DNA of 64,000 nt from an uncultured Thermodesulfobacteriota bacterium. GTDB taxonomy: Bacteria; Desulfobacterota; GWC2-55-46; JADFVP01. The position numbers and the translations under genes were made by a program. Below are positions 1,109 to 63,260 of this stretch, piece after piece (within the stretch, counting starts at the first letter, position 1; each line of letters opens with the position of its first letter). The DNA lies in contig CAYYJQ010000002.1 of assembly GCA_964472295.1 (NCBI GenBank), positions 32,074-96,073 of the forward strand, read 5' to 3'. The notes under the pieces were generated by a model, which made no database searches, had not been told where the DNA came from, and saw only the letters and a program-made list of their open reading frames with translations.

Positions 1109-3115
1109 TCAGGGTATGGAGTGATGAACTACTGACTCACCCTGTGGCGAAATCTCAACCCAGCTGACGAACCTTCTGTTACCGTTCAATACCAGGACCC
1201 TCGGGTTGAGCACTTTGCTATTAATGGCGTTGCTTAGCTTCACGGGGCTCGTCCAGACCGCCCCGTCATACTTCATGTAATAGACCTCTCCGTGACCGTC
1301 CCTGTAGTCAACCCACGCGAGGTACAGAAAGTTGGCATCTCCGGCGGCGGTGGGATACCAGGCGTTTACGCCGCTTAGAGTGGGATGCACAGGAACAGAC
1401 CACGTAAGCCCGCCATCTACAGACTTGGACATGAATATCTCCCAGGGGCCCTTCCTGTTATCTACAAAAAAGAGATAGGGCTCTGACTTAAATACCGTAA
1501 CAAAAGGGGTGATGGATTGAGCGCGGTCATCGCCGATGTCAACGGGCGCACCCCAGAGAGCAGACTTAGATGGTCTGCTCATAATGTAAACGTCCCAGTC
1601 ACCGGCAACTCCGTGTCTAACAAGTCTCTGATAGGCCATCACCAGGCCCTGCCCCAGATATTCGGCACTAATCCCCGCAGGAAAAGAGATCCCCTCGGCG
1701 ATCACCTCTTTCTGTCTCTTAGCATTAACATGGTAGGCATACTTTGCCTTTATGGCGCCAAACTCCTCTGTATACAGAATCGCTTTGCCTCGGCTGTCCG
1801 AGACCACGATAGGCTCGTAGACCCAGGCCGGTTTGGTGCTGGCCGTCTCTATGACGCTCTTGGCCACTATATGCTCTGAGTCCCATGTCTGGCCAAAATC
1901 AGGGCTGTTACGGTACTTGAGAGACCAGAGCCCGCCCTTAAGGTCTATCCATATCACATGGAGGCCGTCCTTGTTAACAGAAATATCAGAGAACTTTGTC
2001 ATAACGCCACTGGCGCTCAACTGGAGCGACGGAGACCAGGACCTTGTGGCGTCGTCATACATTGAAAAATAGACTTCATAGACCCCGCTACTGTTGTCGC
2101 GCCAGACCTTATAGGCCTTTCCTTCATAGGAAGCAGTACGGAGGTCTCTTAAATGGACATCAAATGTGCCAGAATAGTTAAAAAAATCTACTATGCTGTT
2201 TCCCTCTGCAAAAGGGGTCTCAAACCCCATGAGTTCACCTATCGTTGGGGCGATGTCAACATGATAGTACTGAGTGGAAACTTGCATGTTCGCCGGGGAG
2301 TCAGGTCCGAGTATCAAAAGCATAATATCCCTGTCCCCGTCACACATGCCCGTATGGTTCTGGAAACCACCATGAGCGTTATCATGGCGTCCATGATCTG
2401 TAGTTATGATAAGGGTTGTATTGTCCTTGTAGAAGGGGTCGGTCTGGATATGGTTCCATAACTCGGCCACATAATTGTCGGCTGTCCTGATGGTATTGAC
2501 ATAATTGTTCCAGTCACCGCTGTGACCGCTCAGGTCTACGTCCTCGAAGTTGATAAAGAGGAGCCTCGGATGGTCTGTGTCGAGCACGGAGAGGGCCTTC
2601 TGATAGGTCTGGTCATCAGGTCCTGTTATGGCGAGTTTTGCCGCGTAATCTATCCCGTAGCCCGGGTAGATGCTGTAATTTATCATATTAAGAGAACCTT
2701 TTCCAACGACCGCCCAGGTCTCACGCTGAGTGAGACCGAGGCCCTTTCTGGCGTACTCGAAGATCGTTGGGGTCTCGGGCCGGGCATTCATCCATCTCTC
2801 GGTGTTAGGTGCCCAATGCCATCTACCGGTAATGATATTGTAATGCCCGGGGGTAGTATACGTAGCGAAAACGTTCTTGAAATTTGTAAAAGCAGTCCCC
2901 TGCGGACGGAGCTCGCCCCATATGCGCGGTATATAGGGATGTGTTACTTCTCCCGGGTTAAAGCGGTACTTCAAGGCCTCTGTATTCCTGAGCCCATCAA
3001 TGGTAATGACTATGACGTTTCTGGTGGTATAGGCAAGGGCACGATGCGAAAGCCCCAGGGTGAGGGTCAGGAAGAGAAGAAAGACTGACAAGTATCTCGA
3101 TATGGATAGCCGCAA
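1109..3115 (-). CDS. secreted nucleotide pyrophosphatase/phosphodiesterase (alkaline-phosphatase superfamily, NPP-type) fused to C-terminal BNR/Asp-box repeats
   Basis: N-terminal signal peptide MRLSISRYLSVFLLFLTLTLGLSHRALA. NPP-type core motifs VIVITIDGLR, TTPGHYNIITG and ITTDHGRHDNAHGG. The C-terminal half carries Asp-box repeats SVDGGLTWS and DFGQTWD. Confidence 0.7.
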   Translation of the reverse strand: MRLSISRYLSVFLLFLTLTLGLSHRALAYTTRNVIVITIDGLRNTEALKYRFNPGEVTHPYIPRIWGELRPQGTAFTNFKNVFATYTTPGHYNIITGRWHWAPNTERWMNARPETPTIFEYARKGLGLTQRETWAVVGKGSLNMINYSIYPGYGIDYAAKLAITGPDDQTYQKALSVLDTDHPRLLFINFEDVDLSGHSGDWNNYVNTIRTADNYVAELWNHIQTDPFYKDNTTLIITTDHGRHDNAHGGFQNHTGMCDGDRDIMLLILGPDSPANMQVSTQYYHVDIAPTIGELMGFETPFAEGNSIVDFFNYSGTFDVHLRDLRTASYEGKAYKVWRDNSSGVYEVYFSMYDDATRSWSPSLQLSASGVMTKFSDISVNKDGLHVIWIDLKGGLWSLKYRNSPDFGQTWDSEHIVAKSVIETASTKPAWVYEPIVVSDSRGKAILYTEEFGAIKAKYAYHVNAKRQKEVIAEGISFPAGISAEYLGQGLVMAYQRLVRHGVAGDWDVYIMSRPSKSALWGAPVDIGDDRAQSITPFVTVFKSEPYLFFVDNRKGPWEIFMSKSVDGGLTWSVPVHPTLSGVNAWYPTAAGDANFLYLAWVDYRDGHGEVYYMKYDGAVWTSPVKLSNAINSKVLNPRVLVLNGNRRFVSWVEISPQGESVVHHSIP

Positions 3116-3180
3116 GATTAACCCCTGGCTTCAGATATGATAGACACGTTGAGAGCGCCCGGGTATTTCATAAGGGACCT

Positions 3181-3208
3181 CTCCTTAATTCAGGGACGAA
3201 TTAAGGAG
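3181..3208. repeat. hairpin CTCCTTAATTC-AGGGAC-GAATTAAGGAG, member of a motif family also at 59901..59930 and 60042..60069
   Basis: Perfect 11-bp stem. The loop is the reverse complement of the GTCCCG/GTCCCT loops of the copies near the porin gene. It lies about 90 nt 5' of the minus-strand start at 3115. Confidence 0.6.
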
Positions 3209-3294
3209 AAACCAACCTTTAGAGACAGCAAGAGGAGTATGCTTACGAATTAAAGAGTCCTCTATTCATAAAGCCGCCTCCATGCCTTGTTGAA

Positions 3295-5703
3295 TCATTG
3301 AACTACATCAATGGCGTCCAGGGGCACAACTCCTCCGCTGGACAGGGGGTTCCTGCTCCCGCTTACCTCAATCCTCAGCGTATGCGTCCCAGCCGTTGGC
3401 CCGGAATACTCAAAGACCGGGACAGAGACCCTTGACGTTGGTGAATAAAGGTCAACAGACTGAACAAATACATCATCAACAAATACATCGGCTATCCCGT
3501 GGCTGGGGCCCATGGCTGACATCCAGCGTACAAGCCTCCCATAGAACTGGAATTGCATATAGTTTCCCGTATGGCTGGAAAACTTTAGTGTTCCGCCGCT
3601 CAAGGCAGGGTCGTCATGGTCGTTCCATTGTCCTTTATAGTATATGAGGTCACTGCTTTCTTCATAACGGTTAAGGTACTGTACGCCGCTCCAGGTGGCG
3701 CCACCATCGAGTGACCTGAAAAGCCCTTTGTAAGTGCCTGCGAAGATGGTTCCGTCAACTGCGAAGTTCGGCGATAGCTCTATGCACCTTACCATGTTAG
3801 GTAATAGTCCCGTACTGCTGAGACTCCAGCTAGCGCCACTATCAGTACTCTTGTAAACCCCTCCCACAAGCGTGCCGGCAAATACCACATGGTCCTTAAG
3901 ATAATTCGGTGAGAGTGCGAGGGCGTTAACCGTACTGTATGGCAGGCCGTTATTCATGGCAACCCAGGTCTGCCCATCGTCAGTGGACCTGAATACCCCG
4001 TCTCCTGATGTGCCGATAAATATGGTTCTGTCCAGGGAGTAGGATGGCGAGAGGCCTATCACCTCTGCGGACACATGCTCTATTCCCAGATTGACGGCAA
4101 TCCATGAATTCCCACGGTCGCTCGACTTGTATATGCCCCGTCTCGTGACGCTGACAAAGACCGTGCCGTCTCTTGCGTAGTCCGGCGATACGGCAATCGC
4201 CCTTATGCCGGGATTGGGCGGCAGACCGGTATTCGCCTGGGTCCACGTTACTCCGCCGTCTACTGAGCGGAAGACCCCCTCACCGTACTCCGATGAGGCG
4301 AAAACAGTCTGGTCAACAAAAAAGTTTGGCGACAACTTGAGCTGGCGCGCATATAACGTGGAGCCTGGTCTCAAGGGATAAAAGTTCCACGTCCCACCCC
4401 CGTCTACTGTCTTGTAAACGCCGAGGTCTGTGCCGAGGAGCACTGTCCTGTCAAGGATATAGGCAGGGGAAATATCAATGGGGTCGATATAGGTATTGGT
4501 AATTGTCTTGTTTTTAACCCTCCACGTCTCGCCATGGGTAGTCGACTTCAAGACGCCCCCCCCGTATGTTCCGGCAAAGACCGTTCCGTCCAGGGCATAT
4601 GTGGCTGATACGGCGATGGAACGGTTCGTGGTCTGGGGAATAACGTTGGCGGAGAGCCAGATGTTGCCCTGTGTGTTTGAATAAAAGAGACCTTCAAAGG
4701 TGGCGATGTAAAGGGTTTTATCAGAGAGATAGGCAGGTGATATCTCTATATCTCTAAAGTGGAAAGTCGTCTGAGGCGAGAGGTGCTGGAGGCCGTTGTT
4801 CAGTTCCTGCCAGGTAGCGCCGCCGTCTTTGGAGCGAAAGACGCCGGAGCCCTGGGAGATGCAAAACATATGGCTATTGGGGGCAACCTCCACGTCACTG
4901 ATATTAAGGTCTGGAAGCCCGGTATTTATGGCCGACCAGGTACTTCCATCATCAATGCTCTTGAATACACCACCGCCTATGGTAGAGGCCACAACCGTGT
5001 GAGTTGTAAGATAAGACGGTGAGACCGCAACAGAGGTGACATCGAGGCTTGTCAACCCTATATTTACAGTACTCCAGCTACCCCCGGTATCGATGCTTTT
5101 GTATATTCCGTACCCCTGCACCGAGACGAAAACCGTAAAGGCCGCGCCGTAGGTAGTGCCGAGCTCTATCGCGGTAACAGCGCCGGCGCCGGCGCCGGTA
5201 TTTAACGAGGTCCACGTCTGCCCGCCATCAATGGACTTGTATACAAGCCCCCCATCGGTTCCGAGGAAGAGGGTCCGGTCTATTGAGAATGAAGGAGAGA
5301 TTGCCAGCGCCGTAACGCTCGGAGTCCCTATGCCGTTGTTGCTGGCGGTCCATGACTCCCCGCCGTCAGTGGAGACGTATACACCGGAAACGGTCCCGGC
5401 GAAGATGATTCCGTCAGTCGTGAAATCAGGTGAAAAAACAGCGGCCTGAACCTTTATGTTCGACATGGGGTCTGTAGGCGGATAAAAACTCATACCCCCG
5501 TCCACGGACTTGAAGAGCACGTTCTTCTCATCGAGATCGATAAGGAGAGTGCTGTCTGAGGCGAAAGCAGGGCTTAGCGCCACTATACTAATGGGGTCAT
5601 GAGGCTGATGCGCAAAGGCACCTGTGGGAAAGAGCCCTACCATCCCAAGACATAAGGAAAGAACAATACACCCTATTAACCTTCTCAAATCCATCTTCAA
5701 CAT
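3295..5703 (-). CDS. secreted BNR/Asp-box repeat protein (tandem beta-propellers) with a C-terminal carbohydrate-binding-like beta-sandwich domain
   Basis: Signal peptide. At least 11 SxDxGxTW repeats, for example STDGGESWT, SIDGGQTWT, SKDGGATWQ, STDDGQTWV and SLDGGATWS. The C-terminal roughly 140 aa reads ...GTHTLRIEVSG...VPLDAIDVVQ, typical of CBM-like sandwiches. Confidence 0.7.
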   Translation of the reverse strand: MLKMDLRRLIGCIVLSLCLGMVGLFPTGAFAHQPHDPISIVALSPAFASDSTLLIDLDEKNVLFKSVDGGMSFYPPTDPMSNIKVQAAVFSPDFTTDGIIFAGTVSGVYVSTDGGESWTASNNGIGTPSVTALAISPSFSIDRTLFLGTDGGLVYKSIDGGQTWTSLNTGAGAGAVTAIELGTTYGAAFTVFVSVQGYGIYKSIDTGGSWSTVNIGLTSLDVTSVAVSPSYLTTHTVVASTIGGGVFKSIDDGSTWSAINTGLPDLNISDVEVAPNSHMFCISQGSGVFRSKDGGATWQELNNGLQHLSPQTTFHFRDIEISPAYLSDKTLYIATFEGLFYSNTQGNIWLSANVIPQTTNRSIAVSATYALDGTVFAGTYGGGVLKSTTHGETWRVKNKTITNTYIDPIDISPAYILDRTVLLGTDLGVYKTVDGGGTWNFYPLRPGSTLYARQLKLSPNFFVDQTVFASSEYGEGVFRSVDGGVTWTQANTGLPPNPGIRAIAVSPDYARDGTVFVSVTRRGIYKSSDRGNSWIAVNLGIEHVSAEVIGLSPSYSLDRTIFIGTSGDGVFRSTDDGQTWVAMNNGLPYSTVNALALSPNYLKDHVVFAGTLVGGVYKSTDSGASWSLSSTGLLPNMVRCIELSPNFAVDGTIFAGTYKGLFRSLDGGATWSGVQYLNRYEESSDLIYYKGQWNDHDDPALSGGTLKFSSHTGNYMQFQFYGRLVRWMSAMGPSHGIADVFVDDVFVQSVDLYSPTSRVSVPVFEYSGPTAGTHTLRIEVSGSRNPLSSGGVVPLDAIDVVQ

Positions 5704-5726: not shown

Positions 5727-7973
5727 CTAAGGCTGAATGGTGAATGCAAAGTGCCCTTCATTCCATACCCTTGAGTAAGACCCTACAAAAGCGTTATAGG
5801 TGTAATTAGACGTGCCTGCGCCTAATGGTATATCGTGACTCATTACCTTGCTGATAGACGAATGGGCCTTTATGGTAAGCGGAACAGGATCAATGAACTC
5901 ACCCGCCGCCGGATACTTCGTACCATTGGGCAAGGTTATGTTGGTCCAGTAATCAAAGGTCAGGTCAACATTTGAGTCGTTAGTAAGAGTGAGGAGGTAT
6001 TTTAGCTTGCCTCCCAAGGGGACAGCAACACTTTCGGGTGTCAAGGTCATGGTCACGCTCGGTTCGGTCAGGGTCAGGAGGTTGTCCGCCGCAACATTAT
6101 AGAGCGTCTGCATAATTCCGCTTGGCCACCTTACTGTAAGCGAATCCACTGTCTGGCTTGTGCCAAGGCCAAAGTGTATGATCTGAGAATTTTGCGAAAA
6201 ACGCGAAGCCCCGCCGGTCTGTTGCCTTGTAGCTGTTCTGGCTCCAATAGTTGCCCTGACCGTAGCGCCTACGGAATCACGGTTATCAACCGAGCCCACG
6301 AGTTTGACCTTGAGCCAGTGGTTGAGGTTTCCATTATTGTGATAAAGGAGGTGGGGGCCGAAACTGAAAGGGGCCATGCCGAAACCGTTAGCGACAAAGA
6401 TGTCCATAAAGCCATTATTGTCATAGTCGCCGATAGCGGCGTTCTCTCCCCTGCCGCCCACATTCGCCTCGACGCCGCTTAATGCGGCGACCTCGGTAAA
6501 GGTCTTGTCTCCGTTATTCATGTACAGGGTGTTGGGCGCGTTGAAGATATGGTCGAGATTAACGACATAGAGGTCGAGATACCCGTCATTGTCAAAGTCG
6601 GCCCAGTTCGCCGAGATGCTGACAGAAAGGTCTGCCGTGTTGGAGGCCGCTGATACGTCGGTAAAGGTTCCGTCTCCCATGTTTTCAAAGAGAATATTGG
6701 GGAATAACTTGAGACTGAACATATCGAAGTTAAAGGGCGTAACAGAAGTTATCGCACCGCCGCTCTTGATAATGCCGGTAAAACTCTCGCCAGAACGGGT
6801 AGAAACTGTCGTGCTCCTAAGGTACCACGTCCCGGCCTCTTCCCAGACGTAGTACGCTGTCTCGGCGCCAGGTGTATAGGCGGGTTTACCGTGAACCTCG
6901 GGAGACCATGACGCCACAGTGAAGGGCATGGACGCCGGATGGACCCCGCTTGCGCCGATGTAGACCTGTGAGGGGTCCACACGCACCTGAAAATTAGATA
7001 TGTCAAATGTAACGGCAGTGCCGGTGGTCGTAAAATCTACGCCCTTCTCGTCCCCCCCGAAGACATCGGTCATGAAATATATGCCACTGCCGTCCCATTG
7101 AATGGTGTCATTTTCGGCGCCCCGTGCAAGGTATAGATCCATATCGCCGTCATTGTCATAGTCTCCCCATGTAAAATCCTGGGCGTAGAATTGCCCACCA
7201 AGACCTGCGGCGTCAGTTACGTCCGTGTAAACTCCGCCGCCGTCATTTCGAAAGAGCATTACCCTGTCTCGGGACTGGAGGTAAATGTCCATTAGGTTGT
7301 CATTGTTGTAATCAACGGCAGTGCCCATGATGGCGCCCATGGCGCTCAGGCCAAGAGAGGGGCCCACGTCCGTAAATGTATCGTCTCCGTTGTTCCTCAT
7401 GAGCGTGGAAGGGTATCCGGTAAGTCTCTCACTACAGAGATACAAGTCAAGGCGTCCATCGAGGTCGTAATCAACCCAGAAACCTCCTCTTGACCGGGCG
7501 TGCGGCACGTCCAGACCAGCAGTAACGGCAATCTCCTCGAAGAGGCCTGTGCCGAGGTTTTTGTAAAGCTTGTTACGGCCCCCACCCTGTGACCGGTTAC
7601 CCCCCTGGGCCTGAAAAAGGTCTTCAAAACCATCGTTGTTGTAGTCGCCCCAGACCGCGCCGTGAAAGTCGCCCACAGGGACGATACCGTAACTATCGGC
7701 CACGTTCTGAAAGGTAAGGTCACCAAGGTTCATAAAGAGCGCTGGCGGGGTCTGCACGTCGGCATGTTGCAACGAATAGTGGTGATTCCCGATATATATG
7801 TCCTCGAGGCCGTCGTTGTTTACATCTCCCCAGGAGACTCCCCATGTGGGTGATACCTGGCTTACTCCTGCCTGGGCCGACACCTCTGTAAAAGAGGTCT
7901 GCGCCGAGGCCTGACCGCTGAACACACTTAAAGAAAGAATAATAATCGCCAGTATTGGAATAATTTTTTTCAT
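5727..7973 (-). CDS. secreted FG-GAP/VCBS-repeat protein with C-terminal ASPIC/UnbV domain (CRTAC1-like)
   Basis: Repeated DYNNDGFEDLF, DYDLDGRLDLYL, DFDNDGYLDLYVVN and DYDNNGFMDIFVANG Ca-binding FG-GAP motifs. An UnbV/ASPIC-like tail reads VGATVRATIG...SLTVRWPSG. The ORF extends to 8015, but the start is likely the Met at 7973, which begins the signal peptide MKKIIPILAIIILSLSVFSGQASA. It abuts the downstream gene with a 23-nt gap, so they are co-transcribed. Confidence 0.75.
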   Translation of the reverse strand: MKKIIPILAIIILSLSVFSGQASAQTSFTEVSAQAGVSQVSPTWGVSWGDVNNDGLEDIYIGNHHYSLQHADVQTPPALFMNLGDLTFQNVADSYGIVPVGDFHGAVWGDYNNDGFEDLFQAQGGNRSQGGGRNKLYKNLGTGLFEEIAVTAGLDVPHARSRGGFWVDYDLDGRLDLYLCSERLTGYPSTLMRNNGDDTFTDVGPSLGLSAMGAIMGTAVDYNNDNLMDIYLQSRDRVMLFRNDGGGVYTDVTDAAGLGGQFYAQDFTWGDYDNDGDMDLYLARGAENDTIQWDGSGIYFMTDVFGGDEKGVDFTTTGTAVTFDISNFQVRVDPSQVYIGASGVHPASMPFTVASWSPEVHGKPAYTPGAETAYYVWEEAGTWYLRSTTVSTRSGESFTGIIKSGGAITSVTPFNFDMFSLKLFPNILFENMGDGTFTDVSAASNTADLSVSISANWADFDNDGYLDLYVVNLDHIFNAPNTLYMNNGDKTFTEVAALSGVEANVGGRGENAAIGDYDNNGFMDIFVANGFGMAPFSFGPHLLYHNNGNLNHWLKVKLVGSVDNRDSVGATVRATIGARTATRQQTGGASRFSQNSQIIHFGLGTSQTVDSLTVRWPSGIMQTLYNVAADNLLTLTEPSVTMTLTPESVAVPLGGKLKYLLTLTNDSNVDLTFDYWTNITLPNGTKYPAAGEFIDPVPLTIKAHSSISKVMSHDIPLGAGTSNYTYNAFVGSYSRVWNEGHFAFTIQP

Positions 7974-8042
7974 GAATAAACGAAGACCCATCTTATACAA
8001 CCCCACGAAGTCCACATAATAACCAACAAGGTTATGGAAGGT

Positions 8043-8062
8043 CTCTTTAATTCAGACTTTCC
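8043..8062. promoter_or_regulatory. CTCTTTAATTCAGACTTTCC motif 5' of the FG-GAP/BNR/NPP/GH operon
   Basis: It shares CTCTTTAAT with 59901..59909 and AAT(T)CAGACTTTCC with the direct repeats at 60172..60200. Confidence 0.4.
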
Positions 8063-8109
8063 AACGGTGAAAATATGCGCCGCCATCTTCAAGGTTTGTC
8101 AGCCCTTGA

Positions 8110-8140
8110 AAATGCAAAAAAACCGCGTTTTTTTGCATTT
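8110..8140. repeat. 31-bp palindrome AAATGCAAAAAAA-CCGCG-TTTTTTTGCATTT
   Basis: Perfect 13-bp arms. A similar A-tract/CGCGG/T-tract palindrome GAAAAAGAAAAAA-CGCGG-TTTTTCTTTTTC lies at 60074..60105. It sits in the 400-bp spacer between the EPS locus and the secreted-enzyme operon. Confidence 0.6.
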
Positions 8141-8414
8141 CATCTCCCCTTATTTCAAGGACGAACTAAGAGGAGGTTCCCTATATTAAAAAAACAATGT
8201 AGCCATATGCTACGGCATTATACATAATTTCAAGATATTTTGCAAGCCGTTGCCCCATGGAGGGAAGGCATCATTAACCATATTTTACAGGCCCCTCCAG
8301 TAGCCCATGACCTGAACCTGGTTTACGCTACGATAGAACCCATGGCCAAACAGGGACCTTCAAAATGGAGAGTTTCCCATGATTTTCCTGAGTCGTACAA
8401 CATCTCCCTTCGTA

Positions 8415-9578
8415 TCATCCTCTTGCGGCCATATCATACACCCTCAGTATATTCTCCATCATGGTATGGACCGAAAACCTATCTTCTACGAAGCGCCTTC
8501 CCTCTTCTGCAAGCCTCTTTCTAAGAGCAGGCTCGCTTAATAGTCTCAAGATGGCCTTGCCGAGTCCCTGCTCATCACCTGCCCTCACAAGCAGTCCCGT
8601 CTTCTCGTGTATTACGGTCTTACTGATTTCGTCTACGTCTGTTGCCACAACGGCCTTTTCATGGGCCATGGCCTCTACGAGCACGAGACCCTGACTCTCA
8701 GTGGAAGAACATAGCACCAAAATGTCCATGGCACTGTACACGGCGTCCATGTCGTTACGCCAGCCCGTGAAGACAACGCTATCGCCCATGCCGAGCTCGG
8801 CGGCGAGCCTCTTAAGGCCCCCCATCAGCGCTCCATCGCCTACTACGAGAAAACGCGCATCCGCCTTGGCCTTAAGCACCCCGGCGGCCGCCCGGAGGAA
8901 GTGGTCGTGGTTCTTCACCGGGACCATCCTTCCTACGATAGCCACAACAGGTGCCCCTGCGCTGATGTCAAACTCTCTCCTAATGTCTGAAGACTCATCC
9001 CCAGCACCGGCCTCGGGAAGGAGTATGCCGTGAGGTATGGTCTCGATCTTCTCCTCACCCACCCCCTGCTCGATGAGCCTTTTCCTTATGCCCCCAGAGA
9101 CGGCGATAAACTTCTTTGTAAACCCGGACATGAGCCTGTCGACCTGAAAAAACAACCTTGCGCCAAGGGGGCTCTTCTCAAGCCCGGCGAGTTCGTCTAT
9201 CATGTAACTGTGCATGGTGGTAACAACGGGAACACCTGCAAGCCTCGCCGAGAGCCTCCCGTAAAAATTGCTGTTTATGGTATGCGTGTGCATCACATCT
9301 ATCCGGTTTCTCTTAAGATAGATGTACAGCCTCGCCACAAGGGCAGGGTCCAGGGGCATGTATTTGGGTATCAGTTCATAGGGTACTCCAAGGTCCTCGG
9401 CCACACGCTGACCCGGACCGGGTATGAAAAAAACCACCCTGACGTCGGCCCTTTCACGGGCCTCCCTGGCAAGCGTCAGGACATGGGTAAGGGCCCCACC
9501 GCCCTGGGCGTCTATAAGGCAGGCTATCCTGAGTCTTCTCCCGCGCCCTCCTCTCCTGGTTCCCGCCCTTGTCCTCAA
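8415..9578 (-). CDS. GT4-family glycosyltransferase (GT-B fold)
   Basis: EX7E-type motif EAMAHEKAVVATDVDEISKTVIHEKTGLLV and a GT-B C-domain. The N-terminus from the ORF track (MRTRAGTRRGG...) is probably over-extended. Confidence 0.75.
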   Translation of the reverse strand: MRTRAGTRRGGRGRRLRIACLIDAQGGGALTHVLTLAREARERADVRVVFFIPGPGQRVAEDLGVPYELIPKYMPLDPALVARLYIYLKRNRIDVMHTHTINSNFYGRLSARLAGVPVVTTMHSYMIDELAGLEKSPLGARLFFQVDRLMSGFTKKFIAVSGGIRKRLIEQGVGEEKIETIPHGILLPEAGAGDESSDIRREFDISAGAPVVAIVGRMVPVKNHDHFLRAAAGVLKAKADARFLVVGDGALMGGLKRLAAELGMGDSVVFTGWRNDMDAVYSAMDILVLCSSTESQGLVLVEAMAHEKAVVATDVDEISKTVIHEKTGLLVRAGDEQGLGKAILRLLSEPALRKRLAEEGRRFVEDRFSVHTMMENILRVYDMAARG

Positions 9579-47221: not shown

Positions 47222-47380
47222 TCCCAATTTCTTTTAGAAAAAAGAAAGTCTTTTGATTGGGCGGCGAAGCCCATCTCAATTATTTGGTCAATACGCATGA
47301 CAGGCAAATTTTGCCAGAAAGAAAGCGCGTCAAAGAAAACCAATAGTGGAGTGGGCACTGCCCACCAAAAAAAAGAAGAA
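47222..47380. repeat. intergenic repeat element, copy A (truncated; ncRNA / MITE-like candidate)
   Basis: T-tract/A-tract palindrome TTTCTTTTAGAAAAAAGAAAG (47227..47250). Core GTCAAAGAAAACCA (47329..47342). Hairpin GTGGGCACTGCCCAC, then an A-rich tail. Confidence 0.7.
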
Positions 47381-49659: not shown

Positions 49660-49885
49660 ATATTTCCCCTTTCTTTTTGGAAAAAGAAAGTTTTTTATTC
49701 AGGCGGCCATCTCCCTCAGGATTTCTTGGACACACCGTATGATATGCACGCTTTATCAGGAAGAAACCGCGTCAAAGAAAACCAAAAAATTTGTAGTAGT
49801 GGGGTGTGCCCCCAAAAGAAAAAAGTTCTCGTAGGATGGGTGGAGCGTGTGCGAAACCCAACAACTCAAAAGATAAAAAGACAGT
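49660..49885. repeat. intergenic repeat element, copy B (full length)
   Basis: Palindrome CTTTCTTTTTGGAAAAAGAAAG (49668..49692). Core GTCAAAGAAAACCA (49771..49784). Hairpin GGGGTGTGCCCC. Second core AGGATGGG...GCGAAACCCAACAA (49831..49865). Confidence 0.7.
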
Positions 49886-53264: not shown

Positions 53265-53387
53265 GGTAATGAAAAGTGAAACGCCTACAGCCGGACCTGC
53301 GCGGCCACGGCACCCGGCGCGGCAAAAGGGGAGTGAAAGTCCCTGGTCCTCGGCATAAAGGGAGCGCCCAATACCGGTTTTCTTTGT

Positions 53388-53417
53388 CTTACTTTCTTTT
53401 TTCAAAAAGAAAGTAAG
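53388..53417. repeat. 30-bp perfect palindrome CTTACTTTCTTTTT-TC-AAAAAGAAAGTAAG (partial relative of elements A-C)
   Basis: Same arm sequence (CTTTCTTTT / AAAAGAAAG) as the palindromes opening elements A, B and C. It is followed by GGAAAACCAAGG and the nirB terminator hairpin. Confidence 0.6.
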
Positions 53418-57372: not shown

Positions 57373-59857
<2,485 letters not shown>

Positions 59858-59897
59858 CTTGTCTCCTCTTCTTGCCCCGGTTTTTTATCTTGAGGAA

Positions 59898-60212
59898 CCT
59901 CTCTTTAATCCGTCCCGGAATTAAGGAGAGACGGGAAAGAAAAAAACGCTGTTTTTCTTTCCCTCACATTTTCAAGAACTTACAGTTATAGAAAATCTCA
60001 ACACGTCCCGGCGTTGCTGGAACATCTGAATTAAGGAAGCTCTGAATAATTCGTCCCTGAATTATTCAGAGACGAAAAAGAAAAAACGCGGTTTTTCTTT
60101 TTCTCACATTTTCAATAACTTACAGTTATCGAAAATGGCAACACGTCCATGTGTTGCTGGAAAGTCTGAATTAATCAGACTTTCCTTAATCAGACTTTCC
60201 TTTCTTATCCCG
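59898..60212. repeat. tandem 139-bp direct repeat (2 body copies, 3 hairpin modules) in the leader of the porin-glnK-amt operon
   Basis: Unit 1 starts at 59935 (GAAAGAAAAAAACGCTGTTTTTCTTTCC...) and unit 2 at 60074 (GAAAAAGAAAAAACGCGGTTTTTCTTTTTC...). The units contain ACTTACAGTTAT(A/C)GAAAAT and GCAACAC-N6-GTGTTGC. The hairpin modules lie at 59901..59930, 60042..60069 and 60164..60200. Confidence 0.7.
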
Positions 60213-60339
60213 AAGGTCATCCATATCTCCCCCCCTGCCCCGGGCGCGCCGCGCCGCGCTCCACCTGCCAACCGCCGTCATGACAATCAGGAGGGAGACG
60301 AATAAGGACATGCCTACTCGTCAATTCCCTTCATATAAC

Positions 60340-60355
60340 GCAACTTTGGTGCCAC
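60340..60355 (-). promoter_or_regulatory. sigma-54 (-24/-12) promoter for the porin-glnK-amt-amt operon
   Basis: The minus strand reads TGGCAC-CAAAG-TTGC, a perfect match to TGGCAC-N5-TTGC, about 480 nt 5' of the porin start. An NtrC-family activator gene is present in the window. Confidence 0.55.
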
Positions 60356-63057: not shown

Positions 63058-63260
63058 CAAACTTTCTTTTAGAAAAAGGAAAGTTTTTTGGCTGGGTTGC
63101 TCTCTACCTCTGGCTTTTTGGAAGTTAAATCAAGAAAGGTTAGTCTGCCACAAAAAGAAATTGTCAAAGAAAACCAATACCAATGGCCTTCGGCCATTGG
63201 AAATAACTTGCAGGATGGGCGAAGCACAGCGAAACCCAACAAGAAGCACAGAAGAGAAAG
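63058..63260. repeat. intergenic repeat element, copy C (full length)
   Basis: Palindrome CTTTCTTTTAGAAAAAGGAAAG (63062..63085). Core GTCAAAGAAAACCA (63163..63176). Hairpin CCAATGGCC-TTCG-GGCCATTGG. Second core AGGATGGG...GCGAAACCCAACAA (63211..63243). Confidence 0.7.

Follow-up and report, generated by a model that had tools for sequence, protein, structure and literature searches.

Background

Hairpins that recur in front of genes for exported proteins raise the question of whether they are regulatory sites shared by those genes or have another origin. The question is posed by a 64,000-nucleotide stretch of DNA from an uncultured Thermodesulfobacteriota bacterium, analysed over its whole length and referred to here as the window, in which a sequence-only reading had noted a hairpin at positions 3181-3208, inverted likenesses of it upstream of a porin gene and a related motif upstream of an FG-GAP operon. 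These were proposed to form a common cis-element for exported-protein genes, implying a shared regulator or control at the RNA level. Our analysis makes it very probable that the hairpins are instead parts of a non-autonomous MITE that transposes at TA-centred 4-bp targets. The features of the window on which the argument draws are as follows.

1109..3115, minus strand: phosphodiesterase/sulfatase-type gene (NPP), with Phosphodiest and Sulfatase domains and a weak BNR_2 match
3174..3264: probable 91-nt remnant, a putative internally deleted or rearranged copy of the element
3181..3208: hairpin CTCCTTAATTC-AGGGAC-GAATTAAGGAG, perfect 11-6-11; a solo, diverged H5 of the element
3295..5703, minus strand: BNR/sortilin protein gene
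5727..7973, minus strand: FG-GAP/ASPIC protein gene, start codon at 7973
8036..8180, plus strand: full-length copy, 145 nt (unit3); nhmmer model positions 1-150, E=2.6e-28
8217..8245, minus strand: sigma-70-like promoter TTGCAA-17-TATAAT upstream of the FG-GAP gene, 10/12 matches; host sequence
8415..9578, minus strand: GT4 glycosyltransferase gene
59117..59857, minus strand: Gcw_chp/TorF-type porin gene, followed by glnK and amtB
59894..60200, minus strand: outer copy (unit2), split by unit1 into 60200-60186 (left half of H1) and 60030-59894 (the rest)
60035..60185, minus strand: inner copy, 151 nt, canonical sequence (unit1); nhmmer model positions 1-150, E=9e-45
60340..60354, minus strand: sigma-54-type promoter TGGCACcaaagTTGC; host sequence upstream of the inserted copies

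Hairpins in the window

A perfect hairpin had been reported about 90 nt 5' of the NPP-BNR gene, and it is present at exactly 3181-3208. On the minus strand it precedes the TTG start of the NPP gene (3115) by 66-93 nt and follows the stop codon of the BNR/sortilin gene at a distance of 87 nt. Its reported inverted match to the porin-upstream hairpins was recovered (31 nt at 90% with 59900-59930; 25 nt at 88% with 60047-60071), as was the likeness of the motif at 8043-8062 to the porin region, where 8032-8063 matches 60158-60189 at 88% over 32 nt. With one mismatch or none, CTCCTTAATTC occurs eight times in the window against 1.31 expected, a count reached by 0 of 100 shuffles. Six of these matches lie inside the three intergenic regions that the sequence-only reading had named, and the other two (5287 and 52559) are single-mismatch matches within coding regions, at chance level.

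The hairpins are pieces of a discrete element with five stem-loops (H1-H5), of which a profile search of the window found only three units and the solo H5. Unit3 has its H1 at 8043-8062 and its H5 at 8144-8175, and the former motif seems to combine pieces of the porin modules because H1 and H5 carry the two inverted ends of the element, which is also the reason that they have TCTGAnTnATTCAG in common. Unit3 is flanked by TTAT (8032-8035) and CTAT (8181-8184) and is positioned between the sigma-70-like promoter and the FG-GAP start codon. The region upstream of the porin gene has the appearance of two tandem units of ~140 nt on the minus strand, with a fold z of -8. Here unit1 sits in the H1 loop of unit2, with TTAA on both sides (60186-60189 and 60031-60034). 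The H5 of unit1 is the hairpin at 60042-60069, in canonical form; the hairpins at 3181 and 59901 are diverged variants, the latter (59901-59930) included in the remainder of unit2. CsrA-type loops of unit1 lie at 60051-60060 (H5) and 60143-60152 (H2). Genes around all copies in the window are on the minus strand throughout. Judged by loop sequence, the 3181 hairpin and unit3 are antisense to these genes, and only the composite of unit1 and unit2, in the 5' leader of the porin-glnK-amtB operon, is sense.

The profile matched the 3181 hairpin at 3178-3209 on the plus strand (model positions 113-144, E=1.5e-4). Its AGGGAC loop reads on that strand, and TCAGGGACGA at 3190-3199 fits the CsrA-type consensus. 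The surrounding 91 nt (3174-3264) are probably a decayed, internally deleted copy of the element. They are bounded by end-like inverted sequences, GGGACCTCTCCTTAATTC (3174-3191) and GAATTAAAGAGTCCTCTA (3247-3264), the second of which, reverse-complemented, is TAGAGGACTCTTTAATTC and resembles the element terminus; its half-site at 3247-3257 was recovered by the mismatch search described above. A 7-nt direct repeat, TTCATAA, flanks the whole (3167-3173 and 3265-3271). Both the ends and the H5 arms of this remnant are nearly palindromic and so do not reveal its orientation. As a separate observation, a 17-codon ORF (3173-3120, minus strand, ATG at 3171, MKYPGALNVSIISEARG and then the stop codon) starts right after the end of the remnant; its stop codon precedes the TTG of NPP by 4 nt, so that the ORF could couple translation.

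Anatomy and distribution of the element

Alignment of 28 copies defined an element of 142-155 nt with sharp boundaries and unrelated flanks, ordered as left inverted repeat/H1, H2, H3, H4 and H5/right inverted repeat. The aligned sequence is (A)AGGAAGGTCTGATTTATTCAGACCTTCC - GCGACACAtGGAtGTGTCGC - CATTTTCAgtGGCggcAAGCCatTGAAAATG - TGAGAAAAAGAAAAtcGCAtTTTTCTTTTTC - GTCTCTGAATAATTCAGGGACGAATTATTCAGAGGTTCC. The window copies hold no conserved ORF, and the element is non-coding.

A tolerant H5 pattern was scanned against a species-representative collection with one genome per bacterial species, and 28 loci were returned. Twenty-six are real and come from eight Thermodesulfobacteriota/'Deltaproteobacteria' MAG species (JBHHTR, JBHHYT, JBHHXU, JBHHUP, CAYOVP, CAZEBZ, CAZMKZ and JAJRYL), with up to 8 loci per fragmentary MAG. 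The other two, L007 (Nitrospirae) and L012 (Dehalococcoidia), were discarded as chance matches in which the stems are unpaired and the rest of the element is missing. A profile search of the window and the loci yielded 28 full copies and ~8 partial ones, including extra copies inside the 8-kb loci. DNA similarity between the window and the loci is confined to the element (up to 88.6% over 158 nt), barring a ~43-nt match to L018 that belongs to a second repeat. A strict hairpin pattern run against metagenomes gave only a chance match, L002, in AT-rich eukaryote-like DNA, from a collection that does not include the source sample. The element had no blastn match in a plasmid collection, and a literature string search for its sequence returned nothing relevant and no description.

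Copies are on average 84% identical within a genome and 75% identical between genomes. Copies in the same genome have thus diverged by ~16%, so the family does not reflect a recent burst. It is old yet keeps its fold, and it is conserved more in structure than in sequence. Internal-deletion derivatives occur in L026 and L020. In L011 (6970-6736, minus strand) H5 is split by an unrelated insert of ~112 nt (GGAAGCATCCCACGG...GAGGCATA) that may be another small mobile element. Copies in L020 (6688-6810, minus strand) and L021 (2781-2883, plus strand) lie near the same place in orthologous flanks in opposite orientations, pointing either to an inversion or to separate insertions at a hot spot.

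Evidence for transposition

The element has imperfect terminal inverted repeats (GGAAGGTCTGA.../...TCAGAGGTTCC). When its left 18 nt (GGAAGGTCTGAtTtATTC) were compared with the reverse complement of the right end (GGAAccTCTGAaTaATTC), a mean of 12.6 of 18 positions matched, against 4.7 in internal controls. The 4-nt flanks of the copies resemble each other as target duplications do: they are identical in 10 of 28 copies and agree in at least three positions in 19 of 28. Flank matches total 81, compared with 56.9 +/- 3.8 under random re-pairing, and 0 of 10,000 re-pairings reached 81. NTAN is found on the left of 15 and on the right of 20 of the 28 copies; strict YTAR is found in just 8-10 of the 28, about a third. 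The commonest flanks are TTAG, CTAA, TTAA, ATAA, ATAG and TTAT. Some duplications look 3 or 5 bp long, and 4-5 unexplained bases separate the ends of the outer porin copy from its ATAA repeats.

The porin leader preserves one insertion inside another, as GGAAAGTCTGA-TTAA, the 151-nt copy (60185..60035), and TTAA-TTCAGATGTTCC.... Removal in silico of the inner copy and one TTAA improved the profile match of the outer copy from model positions 11-150 (114.7 bits) to 1-150 (126.5 bits).

Related genomes show the same locus without the element. Four orthologous GT5-GATase-porin-glnK-amtB loci (L032, L033/34, L035 and L036), with porins 84-86% identical, lack it and keep the sigma-54 promoter, followed by a 100-130 nt leader; the MAG behind one of them has at least five copies elsewhere. 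The orthologs read GGATAAAAAAAC at the insertion site, where the window reads GGATAAgaaa, the copies, and tcaagATAAAAAACC. The promoter itself, TGGCACcaaagTTGC, is the window's only perfect sigma-54-type match, and it recurs at the orthologous place as TGGCAC-N5-TTGC in L033/34, L035 and L036 and as GGCAC-N5-TTGC in L032. Its conservation is consistent with nitrogen control of the porin-glnK-amtB operon. Apart from the element, the leader that follows this promoter comes in different forms: one is common to L032 (~2470-2560), L033 (~2385-2480) and L036 (~2385-2480) and reads GGGGATTAGAGCGAAGC...GACCTTTTCGGGGC..., and the window (60338-60201) and L035 have a different, GC-rich leader instead, which in the window contains a 41-codon ORF (60311..60186, MSLFVSLLIVMTAVGRW...).

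In L037, which is more distantly related (NPP 68% identical), the syntenic GT-FG-GAP-BNR-NPP locus likewise has no copy in its FG-GAP leader or in its BNR-NPP spacer. Its spacers are shorter by about 100 and 167 nt, and the BNR-NPP spacer, 179 nt in the window, measures 79 nt there and lacks the hairpin. L037 has a TTGCAA...TA-rich stretch similar to the sigma-70-like promoter of the window. Copies also occupy different positions in the syntenic region of L005 and L023, which offers no clean empty site because the cupin genes differ as well.

In the window, then, two copies, one nested in the other, have entered the porin leader and one has entered the FG-GAP leader in antisense, and what is probably a decayed remnant lies between BNR and NPP.

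Resemblance to IS5

The termini point to a possible source of mobility. The ends of E. coli IS5 are GGAAGGTGCGAATAAG and GGAAGGTGCGAACAAG; the left end of the element (GGAAGGTCTGATTTAT) and its right end in reverse complement (GGAACCTCTGAATAAT) each match E. coli IS5A at 11 of 16 positions. The first 7 terminal bases (GGAAGGT; IS5-type end GGAAGGTGCGAA...) are identical, which is suggestive, though the stretch is too short to establish descent. IS5 duplicates a 4-bp (C/T)TA(A/G), or YTAR, target (PMC5009759). Both IS5 and the element duplicate a 4-bp TA-centred target and prefer non-coding DNA, although the target is looser in the element (NTAR/NTAN). IS5 is 1195 bp long and carries the transposase InsH, whereas the element encodes nothing.

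Neither a transposase or InsH-like gene (tblastn with E. coli InsH) nor further element ends marking an autonomous copy (end-sequence search) were found in the window and 26 loci, ~300 kb in all; a weak InsH match in L024 proved to be cobyrinate a,c-diamide synthase. Since no transposase was found, assignment to IS5 is an inference from the 7 terminal bases and the target type. The mobilising enzyme is probably of the IS5 family and encoded elsewhere in the genome, from where it would move the element in trans. Copies insert at [T/C/A]TA[A/G] sites, which abound near stop and start codons and in AT-rich spacers, so they build up between genes in either orientation.

Conserved RNA fold

Covariation among the copies supports all five helices. 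Of the cells in paired columns, 91.4% can pair, compared with 41-49% when partners are slid by 1-3 columns; double (compensatory) changes occur in 21 of 50 pairs and amount to 77 cells against 16-30 in the slid controls, and 0 of 500 shuffles reached the observed covariation values. The aligned strand has 77 G-T cells against 35 A-C cells; two columns supply 19 of these, so the cells do not count as independent. Such a strand bias is what selection on one strand, as RNA or single-stranded DNA, would give. A DDE transposase has no need of five stems kept by compensatory changes, and they indicate a further constraint, on RNA or a single strand.

No conserved promoter or intrinsic terminator was found inside or beside the element. 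A conserved TTGAAAATGTGAG had suggested an internal promoter, and the copies hold no sigma-70-like or sigma-54-like site. H2 followed by CATTTTC was flagged as terminator-like, with a T run just 4 long. Rfam at gathering thresholds returned nothing for the whole window. A permissive search matched gyrA RNA (RF01740) at 59880-59969 on the minus strand, spanning GUGAG plus H4 and H5 of the outer porin copy, with 29.5 bits against a gathering threshold of 45 (E about 1e-5 in this small region). This identity was rejected, as seven loci with canonical copies give no match; by coincidence, the copy in L010 lies upstream of a gyrA gene.

Neighbouring genes and alternative explanations

Relative to the downstream gene, ~16 copies are sense and 9 antisense. 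Sense copies elsewhere precede genes for an ABC ATPase, GyrA, glyoxalase II, a Na/Ca exchanger, GT2, TrpD, Fmt, a CCG/Fe-S oxidoreductase, Mrp/ApbC and GlgB. The neighbours are thus mostly cytoplasmic housekeeping genes and have no common function. By inspection of N-termini, about 6 of 17 downstream products look exported, near the normal share of a proteome, and the proposed link with exported-protein genes is not supported. With neighbours so diverse and about a third of them exported, the three exported-protein genes in the window are a coincidence.

An operator or RNA element that co-regulates exported-protein genes through one regulator would account for the enrichment of CTCCTTAATTC in the window and for three of its four sites lying upstream of signal-peptide genes (NPP/BNR, FG-GAP and porin-like). 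Against it stand the mostly cytoplasmic housekeeping neighbours in other genomes, the two window sites antisense to their genes, the orthologous loci that keep their promoters and lack the element, and the target duplications and nested insertion, which show arrival by transposition. The consistent position, consistent orientation and related genes expected of a regulon were not found among the copies, and we give this explanation hardly any credence. What holds of the common cis-element is that the same element stands at all three sites and has a hairpin, RNA-level character; the shared regulator is not supported, the element being dispersed, in both orientations and absent from orthologous loci with intact promoters.

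The conserved fold invites two further readings. The copies might be a structured-RNA family that does not move, whether small-RNA genes in many copies or a riboswitch-like 5' leader multiplied by ordinary duplication, and the five covarying helices, the excess of G-T over A-C, the fold z of the tandem units and the sense placement of most copies upstream of a gene all agree with this. Such a family is nevertheless very unlikely, given the absence of a conserved promoter or terminator in or beside the copies and of an Rfam family at threshold, the unrelated flanks, the third or so of copies antisense to neighbours, downstream genes that share no function, and the inverted ends, target duplications, nested insertion and empty orthologous sites that indicate transposition. 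A mover of single-stranded DNA, of the REP/REPIN type with a RAYT or derived from IS200/IS605 as a palindrome-associated element, would suit the hairpin-rich architecture, the strand-biased conservation of structure and the failure to find a DDE transposase in the sequences searched. However, REP/REPIN and IS200/IS605-type elements have no target-site duplications and no terminal inverted repeats, and REP units are 20-40 nt long. The element has both duplications and inverted repeats, is ~150 nt long and ends in termini that resemble those of IS5; nor was a Y1/HUH transposase noticed in passing, and we regard a single-strand mover as very improbable too.

CsrA-type loops and a donated ribosome-binding site

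In the account of Schubert 2007 given in PMC6849547, the optimal CsrA/RsmE site is (A/U)CANGGANG(U/A), an ANGGAN hexaloop closed by C-G. CANGGANG lies in the loop of H2 in 20 of 28 copies and of H5 in 26 of 28. Across 38 elements the full CsrA-type motif was counted 44 times in sense (8.7 per kb) and twice in antisense, over a background of 0.17 per kb. In the window as a whole, WCANGGANGW was counted 27 times, mostly inside coding regions, against 7.8 +/- 2.9 in dinucleotide shuffles, an excess that is probably an effect of codon or amino-acid composition. The genome background is thus ~3x the shuffle expectation, which makes 0.17 per kb the proper yardstick for the enrichment in the element.

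The H2 and H5 loops fit the optimal RsmE site, as far as that account describes it, as do RsmZ/RsmY/CsrB sRNAs and hcnA-type leaders. The likeness to Rsm/Csr hairpins is one of sequence only, and each element has two sites about 95 nt apart. The Shine-Dalgarno sequence of the element is AGAGG, not GGA, and is partly buried in the H5 stem. Rfam Rsm and Csr models gave no match, and tblastn detected no csrA in ~300 kb (window and loci).

In at least five loci the right end of the element, ...CAGAGG, is followed at 7-10 nt by the start of a gene, as in the L014-type junction ...CAGAGGTTCCATAAATG. Since these genes start within that distance and their Pfam domains begin within the first residues, AGAGG must be their ribosome-binding site. 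In L013 the native Shine-Dalgarno sequence is still visible just outside the left end.

The effects on neighbouring genes are likely ones, read from anatomy. A sense copy would add five stable stem-loops to a leader, could replace the ribosome-binding site by AGAGG, half-paired in and gated by H5, and may also supply two predicted CsrA-type binding loops. A copy in antisense, for instance 8036-8180, would give complementary, less well-paired RNA, as would the 3181 loop when taken as plus-strand sequence. A bolder, tentative reading, which we think rather unlikely, is that the element serves as a mobile carrier of post-transcriptional control, bringing two CsrA/RsmE-type hairpins and often a ribosome-binding site to genes downstream in sense orientation. 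If so, transposition would wire new genes into a CsrA-like regulon, or transcribed copies would together titrate the protein, and such selection would have left its mark in the strand-specific conservation, over at least eight species, of all five stems and of the GGA loops. Functional CsrA-type loops would amount to a mechanism that spreads a post-transcriptional regulon by transposition. Our literature search found no work linking MITEs and CsrA; among the papers searched, the two terms co-occur only in the Rfam 12.0 update.

Relation to known elements and implications

The element is ordinary as a class, a bacterial MITE, and its sequence has not been described before as far as we found. 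Correia elements (CREE/NEMIS) of Neisseria are co-transcribed and alter the expression of neighbours through promoters, an IHF site and RNase III cleavage (PMC10969869). Like the element, they are non-coding MITEs of 100-200 nt with inverted ends and a TA-containing duplication, present in many copies, often immediately upstream of genes, and form RNA hairpins. Sequence and host phylum are unrelated, however, and the duplication is 2 bp in Correia elements and 4 bp here. Correia elements form one long hairpin from their ends, whereas the element forms five local covarying stem-loops and, unlike them, has no detected internal promoter-like site. We know of no counterpart of the CsrA-type loops in Correia elements.

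A second relative by description is the Chunjie MITE, found in Geobacter uraniireducens. Its intergenic copies number in the dozens, besides partial ones that lack ends, and one copy lies inside an operon that it does not break (PMC10969869). Both are MITEs of an anaerobic former 'deltaproteobacterium'. Chunjie measures 178-235 bp, against 142-155 nt for the element, and the two are likened by description, not by sequence. The family described here extends over at least eight uncultured species, and its structure is better conserved than its sequence.

In genome annotation the hairpins are best masked as members of a repeat family, and regulons should not be inferred from them. The family marks a clade of uncultured Thermodesulfobacteriota and can aid binning and strain typing. 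Its copies also show clearly, in natural settings, how a MITE rebuilds a 5' leader: those in the window have placed ~300 nt of stable stem-loops between a conserved sigma-54 promoter and the porin-glnK-amtB operon, and elsewhere the end of the element replaces the native ribosome-binding site of housekeeping genes.

A second intergenic repeat was also observed. It consists of a palindrome, ACTTTCTTTT-(A/T)G-AAAAAAGAAAGT, then (A)AGnCAAAGAAAACCAA, the parts being adjacent or separated by an insert of ~75 nt. Its occurrences are as follows.

Window 47227-47345, 49669-49787 and 63062-63179, plus strand: second repeat family
Window 53370-53413, minus strand: second repeat family
L018 4047-4087 and 6896-6938: second repeat family
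L033/L034 1887-2120: second repeat family

The copies in the window and in MAG SRP216583_co1_91 are 95-98% identical over ~43 nt, and tandem partial copies lie in the GATase-porin spacer of L033/34.
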